Shown piece after piece: positions 21,054 through 21,235 of a DNA stretch of 64,000 bases (its first letter is position 1; the number at the start of each line of letters is the position of its first letter). The position numbers and the translations under genes are program-made. Origin of the DNA: a virus; the IMG/VR virus record IMGVR_UViG_3300031857_000027. One strand, 5' to 3'. The notes under the pieces are model-generated. The model worked only from the letters and a program-made list of their open reading frames with translations, had not been told where the DNA came from and searched no databases.

Positions 21054-21095
21054 ATAAAAACAAAAAACCCCGAAATCTTTTGGACTTCGGGGTTT
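21054..21095 (-). terminator. Intrinsic terminator (attenuator) directly upstream of tRNA-Pro
   Basis: AAACCCCGAAGTC-CAAAA-GATTTCGGGGTTT then TTTGTTTTTA. Confidence 0.85.
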
Positions 21096-21121
21096 GTATA
21101 CAGTTAGAACTAAACTACAAT

Positions 21122-21217
21122 CTATACACAAACCTCCGATGCGGGCGCCCATGAACCATTATCGCTAAATGTGCGATACTGTGGGCATTCCTTCGTAATG
21201 TGTGCTAGTTTGTTCAT
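21122..21217 (-). CDS. Attenuator leader peptide containing all 20 amino acids
   Basis: MNKLAHITKECPQYRTFSDNGSWAPASEVCV*; its last codons form the 5' arm of an antiterminator. Confidence 0.7.
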   Translation of the reverse strand: MNKLAHITKECPQYRTFSDNGSWAPASEVCV

Positions 21218-21235
21218 AATACTATATATAAAATT

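Follow-up and report, generated by a model that had tools for sequence, protein, structure and literature searches.

A short open reading frame (ORF) that contains all 20 amino acids, and whose stop codon lies within a hairpin that competes with an intrinsic terminator, heads the tRNA gene array of an uncultured T4-like phage and recurs at the heads of tRNA arrays in related phages. We consider it probable that this element is a ribosome-mediated transcription attenuator heading a phage tRNA operon, and that its leader samples almost the full range of tRNA species. The evidence for this reading is computational and consists of the conserved ORF, the near-equal stabilities of the alternative structures, the amino-acid completeness of the leader, the layout of promoter and terminator and the position at the array head. 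The element looks like a new switch that couples tRNA production to the translation performance of the cell. To our knowledge, the regulation of phage tRNA arrays, and the reason for full sets in some phages, are largely unknown.

The leader ORF and its surroundings

The window (the whole stretch of DNA that was analysed, 64,000 nucleotides) corresponds to minus-strand sequence of a virus record of 133 kb in IMG/VR. The portal, major head and tail-tube proteins of this phage are of the T4 type, and one of its virion proteins is 57% identical to counterparts in T4-like cyanophages. A candidate promoter-like box, TATATATA, is located at 21223-21230 (minus strand), 5 nt 5' of an ATG at 21217, and resembles a T4 late promoter, matching TATAAATA at 7 of 8 positions; a Shine-Dalgarno sequence is absent upstream of this ATG. 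The leader ORF that begins here (21122-21217, minus strand) consists of 31 codons plus TAG. All 20 amino acids occur in it, 19 of them already within the first 23-25 codons, and its 31 codons include 30 different ones. The ORF is separated by 68 nt from tRNA-Pro on the same strand, and in the window the element lies 3' of a protein-coding gene.

An intrinsic terminator (21055-21095, minus strand) with a 13-bp stem, a 5-nt loop and a T-tract follows the ORF, and a terminator scan placed its stem at 21095-21065. Beyond it lie tRNA-Pro(UGG) (20975-21053, minus strand), a σ70 promoter (20899-20927, minus strand) with a 12/12 match that could drive the rest of the array independently, a boxA-like TGTTCTTTAAAAA just 5' of tRNA-Glu (20752-20769, minus strand) and the remaining 21 tRNA genes (18129-20744, minus strand). 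The array has 22 tRNAs in total and covers all 20 amino acids. Because tRNA-Pro is located between the terminator and the next promoter, it is reached only via readthrough; judging from the sequence, it would be the only tRNA in the window that strictly needs readthrough, the σ70 promoter bypassing the switch for the other 21.

The sequence claims of the original prediction were all borne out, namely the box, the ATG, the 31-codon ORF, the competing hairpin, the terminator, the 22 tRNAs and the separate σ70 promoter downstream of tRNA-Pro, and the predicted ORF (21217-21122) and its peptide are identical to an entry in the ORF list. The leader peptide matched no Pfam or NCBIfam family, and in a library of 1.84 billion proteins it was represented by a single 31-residue cluster without a name. 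An Rfam scan (E ≤ 1) returned the two flanking tRNAs and chance sub-threshold matches over the terminator, with no T-box and no other described family.

The gene upstream of the leader in the window (21236-21634, minus strand) encodes 132 residues of the DUF7695 type, for which there were 149 confirmed matches, and is widespread in viral contigs. It adjoins the leader only in its closest homologues.

A family of leaders at the heads of tRNA arrays

All nine of the closest homologues of the upstream 132-residue gene are accompanied by a 31-codon ORF, the hairpin, the terminator and a tRNA array, and pattern searches with the conserved core yielded about 30 more close variants from viral contigs and from freshwater and estuarine metagenome contigs. 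A search with the stop-codon hairpin alone recovered distant members, whose peptides are hardly alignable with that of the window; these peptides share a GVCV-stop ending, and their ORFs, each with a terminator downstream, head tRNA arrays. Further members with slightly varied tails (GVCG, GVSV and GVCVS) were found by a search with the terminator arm. The family comprises 45 loci from uncultured T4-like phages, with 41 distinct peptides of 23-46 codons, and all 45 loci stand at the heads of tRNA arrays, the first tRNA being located 8-255 nt beyond the element. The gene 5' of the element differs between members.

The original prediction had proposed conservation of the ORF in homologues as a test, and in all 45 loci the leader ORF is open and of similar length, with indels that are in-frame only and a stop codon at a fixed place in the hairpin arm. 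The leader frame contains no stops, whereas the two alternative frames have on average 1.4 and 2.3.

One complete relative of 169,777 bp (G001) was missed by the sequence patterns and was found by synteny alone. Its array of 25 tRNAs is preceded by TATAAATA, 5 nt and the ATG of a 32-codon ORF that contains all 20 amino acids and ends in GGFV-stop. On the 3' side of this ORF are a stop hairpin with covarying arms, a terminator and, 8 nt further on, tRNA-Ser, with no σ70 promoter in between. As read from its sequence, G001 is an independent prediction that came true. G002 has a plain promoter ahead of its 7-tRNA array.

Searches of a phage collection with blastn and tblastn returned only tRNA-Pro or short chance matches from cultured phages; the tRNA-Pro match in Vibrio phage Pylo was set aside, as its context is unrelated. 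No family member was found among the first 120 pattern matches listed for bacterial genomes. The family is limited to uncultured T4-like phages from freshwater and estuaries.

Constraint on RNA and on peptide

Within the close family, pN/pS is 0.61, and the variable sites number 11, 14 and 19 at codon positions 1, 2 and 3. Codons 14-23 are invariant at the nucleotide level in this group, except for the third position of Gly21 and, in one sequence, Asp19. The residues that are conserved family-wide map to RNA stems. YR and DN correspond to the two stems (TATCGC and GCGATA) of a hairpin within the ORF, P1 (codons 14-20; 21160-21178, minus strand), and the (G)VCV-stop tail corresponds to the 5' arm of a second hairpin, P2. 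No conserved peptide motif was found outside the RNA stems, and the remaining positions vary freely.

In P1, 94% of alignment cells are paired, and a compensatory change (CAC/GTG) occurs in L144. P1 may serve as an RNA polymerase pause hairpin. Because the constraint reflected in pN/pS is weak and the ORF is always open, with indels in-frame and the stop position kept, the sequences suggest that translation of the leader ORF counts more than the peptide that is made.

Amino-acid completeness of the leader peptides

With the amino-acid frequencies of this phage, the probability that a single Met-initial 31-mer contains all 20 amino acids is about 3 × 10−4, and a random 31-mer is expected to contain 15.2 ± 1.4 different residues. 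Among the genome's 214 ATG-ORFs of 28-34 codons, the leader alone has at least 19 different residues. One ORF with all 20 amino acids is not decisive, because there are hundreds of small ORFs, and we judge the completeness to be non-random because it recurs in diverged relatives.

We counted different amino acids in 40 distinct peptides (23-46 codons) and found all 20 in 25 of them, 19 in 8, 18 in 5 and 17 in 2, corresponding to z values from +1.4 to +3.7. The start codons of some distant members were chosen by us (the first ATG or, in L119, an in-frame GTG behind AAGGA), and choosing shorter starts lowers the amino-acid diversity of distant members. The mean number of different amino acids is 19.5 in the leader frame, 15.9 and 16.2 in the other frames, 15.9 in the reverse complement and 15.3 in nucleotide shuffles. 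When the shared core residues were fixed and the variable positions randomised in 12 deep representatives, P was 0.004-0.09 per representative. The combined value (P = 3 × 10−11 if the representatives were independent) overstates the case, because family members are related by descent.

Residues that are lost at one site turn up at another. In one lineage L4 has changed to H, yet a new L is found at position 27, and Q13 has changed to E only where Q arises at position 10 or 12 (a swap between E10/Q13 and Q10/E13). Diverged members retain or regain Trp, Cys, His and Met. For a given peptide, all 13 of 13 representatives use at least as many different codons as expected, with single P values from 0.01 to 0.64.

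The first n−6 codons, which roughly represent the stall-sensitive part, contain 16-19 different residues. Val is absent from this part in 35 of the 40 peptides and is supplied by the hairpin arm, Leu is absent from it in 15 of the 40, and several peptides are short of two or three residues. According to our model of the switch, a stall at the Val codons in the hairpin arm would favour termination and give no readthrough. The all-20 diversity put forward in the original prediction is thus upheld as a frame-specific excess, with the full set in 25 of 40 peptides, but not as a strict rule, since Leu is often lost and Val lies mostly outside the sensing zone.

A strict match between the amino acids of the leader and the tRNAs of the array was also considered and rejected. 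Leu is retained in L006, L007 and L052 with no tRNA-Leu called within 3 kb downstream, as is Phe in L003 with no tRNA-Phe called over the same distance.

Competing structures at the end of the ORF

The 5' arm of P2, the putative antiterminator (21122-21139, minus strand), is composed of codons 27-31 and the stop codon. The last 6-9 nt (AAACCCCGA) of the 3' arm (21087-21103, minus strand) double as the 5' arm of the terminator, and in the extended form of P2 a GGRG located 5' of GTTTGTG pairs with the CCC(C)(GA) that opens the terminator stem. The stop codon is inside the P2 5' arm in all members, and the terminator is conserved, with compensatory changes, across the family.

In the window, nascent RNA transcribed as far as the terminator loop has a minimum-energy fold that consists of P1 and a 17-bp extended P2 (21139-21122 with 21103-21087); the latter is the pairing between the end of the ORF (codon 27 to the stop) and the terminator-overlapping segment that had been predicted originally. 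The equilibrium fold of the window contains a short P2 beside the full terminator. In constrained folds of 44 members, the antiterminator and terminator states differ by only 0.15 ± 3.0 kcal/mol, compared with 8.6 ± 3.6 kcal/mol when the 5' arm was shuffled. The two states lie within 3 kcal/mol of each other in 32 of the 44, and the values for G001 are −30.0 and −25.5. The minimum-energy fold is the antiterminator in some members and the terminator in others.

Owing to misalignment of the loops, RNAalifold detected no more than the terminator and part of P1 in a MAFFT alignment, and P2 was therefore specified by hand for the pair counts. In the alignment, 84.6% of cells are paired, as compared with 35-46% when the partners were slid, and double changes occur in 21 cells, as compared with 8.3 ± 2.4 in shuffles. 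Antiterminator pairing in homologues, which the original prediction had named as a test, is thus seen in the near-equal energies over the 44 members, in the pair counts and in the covariation.

We used constrained folding to model the effect of ribosome position in the window. The CCCC was predicted to be sequestered when the ribosomal A-site is at codons 5-20, to be partly accessible at codon 23 and to be free from codon 26 onwards; the originally proposed stall window of about codons 2-23 was thereby reproduced.

A trp-like segment 1, in which N-terminal codons pair with the P2 5' arm, is not supported as a family-wide feature. The site recurs (nt 9-26), and its duplexes are no better than those of shuffles (mean z = −0.2), although this pairing does appear in the full-length minimum-energy fold of the window. 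Because a conserved anti-antiterminator is unsupported family-wide, untranslated RNA would read through by default, unlike in trp.

In four loci with the terminator 5' arm CCCCCGATAC (L093, L097, L100 and L111), the inner part of the terminator is altered and pairs perfectly with upstream codons (GTATYGG). The antiterminator is lengthened by 7 bp in these loci and is favoured by 2-5 kcal/mol.

Promoters and layout of the transcription unit

T4-type late promoters consist of TATAAATA centred near −10, without a −35 element, and serve late genes. The leaders of the window clade are preceded by TATATATA or TATAAATA, likewise without a −35 element, and L010, L082, L089 and G001 have the exact TATAAATA at the same spacing to the ATG as in the window. 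ATAAATA occurs 15 times on the coding strand of this genome and 3 times on the other strand. Followed by 5-7 nt and an ATG, with no Shine-Dalgarno sequence, it heads genes for a head-tail adaptor, a Dps-like DNA-binding protein and the tail tube (G000 positions 8356, 11620 and 22602, outside the window; L388:8370-9320, L388:11632-12063 and L389:2614-3150). Because structural genes of the same genome share this box-to-ATG spacing, a late and leaderless start of the window's leader is supported, and from its sequence the T4-like phage of the window seems to make leaderless late mRNAs for structural genes.

The late-promoter and leaderless part of the original prediction gains support in the window from the same spacing at the tail-tube and head-tail-adaptor genes. 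Distant members have a strong σ70 promoter, with a −10 element that ends 6-9 nt before the ATG. In L121 this promoter is TTGACA-17-TATAGT and in L127 it is TTGACT-17-TATAAT with an upstream TG; mRNAs of the L121 and L127 type would, by their sequence, be leaderless. In other members the ORF is preceded by roughly 30 nt of A-rich leader.

In L121, L127, G001 and similar loci, the promoter is located directly before the ORF and none is found between the terminator and the first tRNA. The promoter-free stretch in L121, L127 and G001 covers the first tRNAs, up to the next internal promoter. Many members, among them the window clade and the loci L118, L144 and L195, have a σ70 promoter immediately 3' of the terminator, and with this arrangement the switch would either govern only the genes before that promoter or add to promoter-driven transcription. 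A boxA-like TGTTCTTTAAAAA is located directly after the terminator in L119, L121, L127, L132 and L211, and the presence of a boxA-like TGTTCTTTAAAAA(TTT) before tRNAs suggests, at the sequence level, that phage tRNA operons, like rRNA operons, are subject to Nus-type antitermination.

A model for the proposed switch and alternative explanations

We propose that the promoter, which is late-type in the window clade and σ70 in others, is positioned such that the transcript would begin at or beside the AUG and yield a short mRNA. The 31-codon ORF would spend almost each amino acid once, its last five codons and the stop would serve as the 5' arm of P2, and the 3' arm of P2 would hold the CCCC(GA) required by the terminator. 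If a ribosome ran smoothly to the end of the ORF, it would cover the 5' arm, the terminator would form and transcription would halt before the tRNAs. If the ribosome were slowed at an earlier codon, or were absent, the extended P2 would form first, the terminator would be disabled and the polymerase would read through into the tRNA genes, in several relatives first crossing a boxA-like element. The tRNA products would then speed translation of the leader, and the loop would act as a homeostat for decoding capacity.

We see an even chance that the element is such a homeostat, in which slow decoding of any one tRNA species, whether through starvation, codon mismatch or depletion or cleavage of a host tRNA, raises the phage tRNA set and the new tRNAs close the switch. 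That the ORF is translated and that a stall affects readthrough is what we infer from the model, and starvation, codon-usage mismatch and loss of host tRNAs would be the candidate biological triggers; an anticodon nuclease would be a purely hypothetical trigger.

Alternatively, the promoter, small ORF and terminator might constitute a stand-alone mini-gene whose product, either a peptide of 31 residues or a small dual-function RNA (about 160 nt), affects tRNA biology or translation in trans, with the array being transcribed from promoters of its own. The σ70 promoter after the terminator in the window clade, L118, L144 and L195 is consistent with such a gene, as are the conserved ORF and a box-to-ATG architecture that is the same as that of real genes, and there is precedent for it in attenuator-derived RNAs and leader peptides with trans functions (PMC6614838, PMC7298713). 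Nevertheless, constraint at the protein level is weak, the conserved residues lie on RNA stems and the peptide has no protein family match, and for the tRNAs of L121, L127 and G001 and the tRNA-Pro of the window the promoter before the ORF is the only one. Since a mini-gene would also leave unexplained both the near-isoenergetic competing helices and the frame-specific completeness across unalignable peptides, we consider it unlikely. It is far harder to believe that the element is an ordinary operon-end terminator accompanied by a stabilising or processing hairpin, with an incidental ORF. The location of the element 3' of a protein-coding gene in the window and the equilibrium fold of the window, in which the short P2 and the full terminator occur together, would fit this explanation. 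Against it, the ORF has stayed open, its stop in a fixed position, in 45 strongly diverged loci whose other frames contain stops; moreover, the element is served by a promoter of its own, and the upstream gene varies among members.

The structural evidence for an attenuator that samples amino acids applies equally to one that reads only general ribosome traffic or transcription-translation coupling and not each amino acid, in which case the even usage would reflect avoidance of bias or have no function. Several observations agree with a sensor of this kind, including the predicted default of readthrough without ribosomes, the lack of Val and often of Leu from the sensing zone and the existence of general stall-sensing leaders, such as the one upstream of the MexXY regulator (PMC13041342). 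However, a sensor of traffic would not need rare residues, and diverged members have nonetheless retained or regained Trp, Cys, His and Met. The diversity of the leaders is also far above that of the other-frame and shuffle controls, and there is a modest excess of different synonymous codons, with 13 of 13 representatives at or above expectation. We therefore give a sensor of traffic alone little credence.

Comparison with known regulatory systems

The amino-acid-sampling attenuator proposed here resembles the trp, his, leu, thr, ilv and pheA attenuators of enterobacteria in having a short leader ORF, a stop codon in or next to the antiterminator arm, an antiterminator that overlaps the terminator 5' arm and a stop located about 60 nt before the U-tract. 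The logic would also be alike, with a ribosome at the stop leading to termination and an upstream stall leading to readthrough. In contrast, the enterobacterial leaders contain a run of codons for one amino acid and control biosynthetic enzymes, whereas the phage leader has about one codon for nearly each amino acid, and the element is phage-borne, would control tRNAs and lies on a leaderless or near-leaderless mRNA. Unlike in trp, there is no family-wide support for a 1:2 anti-antiterminator (mean z = −0.2). Among the features by which leader-peptide attenuators are recognised, the leader ORF, the terminator before the regulated genes, the mutually exclusive helix and the placement at the end of the ORF (the last being a model calculation) are all present, but clustered regulatory codons are not, as 30 of the 31 codons are different. 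Because there is no run of any codon, the element is a variant and not a classical attenuator.

Leaderless polycysteine short ORFs act as attenuators in mycobacteria, according to a preprint (bioRxiv 10.1101/834739), and are similar to the proposed phage attenuator in being located at the operon 5' end and in that the speed of their translation sets downstream expression. As described there, they report one amino acid through runs of Cys, whereas the phage leader spans 17-20 amino acids and would operate with an intrinsic-terminator switch before tRNAs. T-box riboswitches are alike in aim, as they sense the charging or availability of tRNA and set transcription readthrough, but they bind one uncharged tRNA directly without a ribosome, and there was no Rfam T-box match here.

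Stall-sensing leaders of resistance genes, of the erm and cat types, answer drug-bound ribosomes and often need a specific nascent-peptide motif, whereas the phage leader has no conserved peptide motif outside the RNA stems. These leaders and the one upstream of the MexXY regulator (PMC13041342) are similar to the proposed phage switch in reporting general elongation trouble via alternative RNA structures. The element further resembles systems of rrn-type boxA/Nus antitermination in that a boxA-like TGTTCTTTAAAAA is present in the array leader regions of the window and five relatives, but in contrast to a sensor the putative boxA would act after the decision point.

Full-text literature searches yielded no description of a leader ORF or an attenuator ahead of phage tRNA genes. 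If our reading is true, this would be the first case of attenuation that integrates over the entire genetic code, feedback control would for the first time be known for tRNA genes encoded by a virus, and classical attenuation would widen from a single amino acid to overall decoding. A leader that covers nearly the whole code would supply a concrete mechanism tying phage tRNA supply to the translation state of the host, with a possible tie to anti-phage defences that target tRNAs. The design principle could become a compact, genetically encoded reporter of translation stress, and because the family is confined to uncultured phages, the 45-locus comparative set is the starting material for synthetic reporters.

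Other tRNA clusters and leader regions

A second tRNA cluster of the window (32939-33180, minus strand), with Arg-UCU, Met/Ile-CAU and Leu-UAA, has no leader ORF and no terminator upstream and is located directly 3' of a coding region. In an unrelated 182-kb phage contig (G005; L422, about 145,600-145,944), a 33-codon ORF and a terminator precede an array of 23 tRNAs. This ORF encodes just 14 different amino acids and lacks a stop-codon hairpin, and it may be a different kind of leader or merely a small gene.

Three family members (L129, L143 and L196) carry a GC-rich, structured stretch that begins with GGAGAGTAATGCAG or GGAAGTTGATGCAG after the terminator, about 75-165 nt past the leader stop. 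The stretch is not called by ARAGORN, and the first called tRNA follows about 90 nt after it; the stretch itself may be an unusual tRNA or another RNA.
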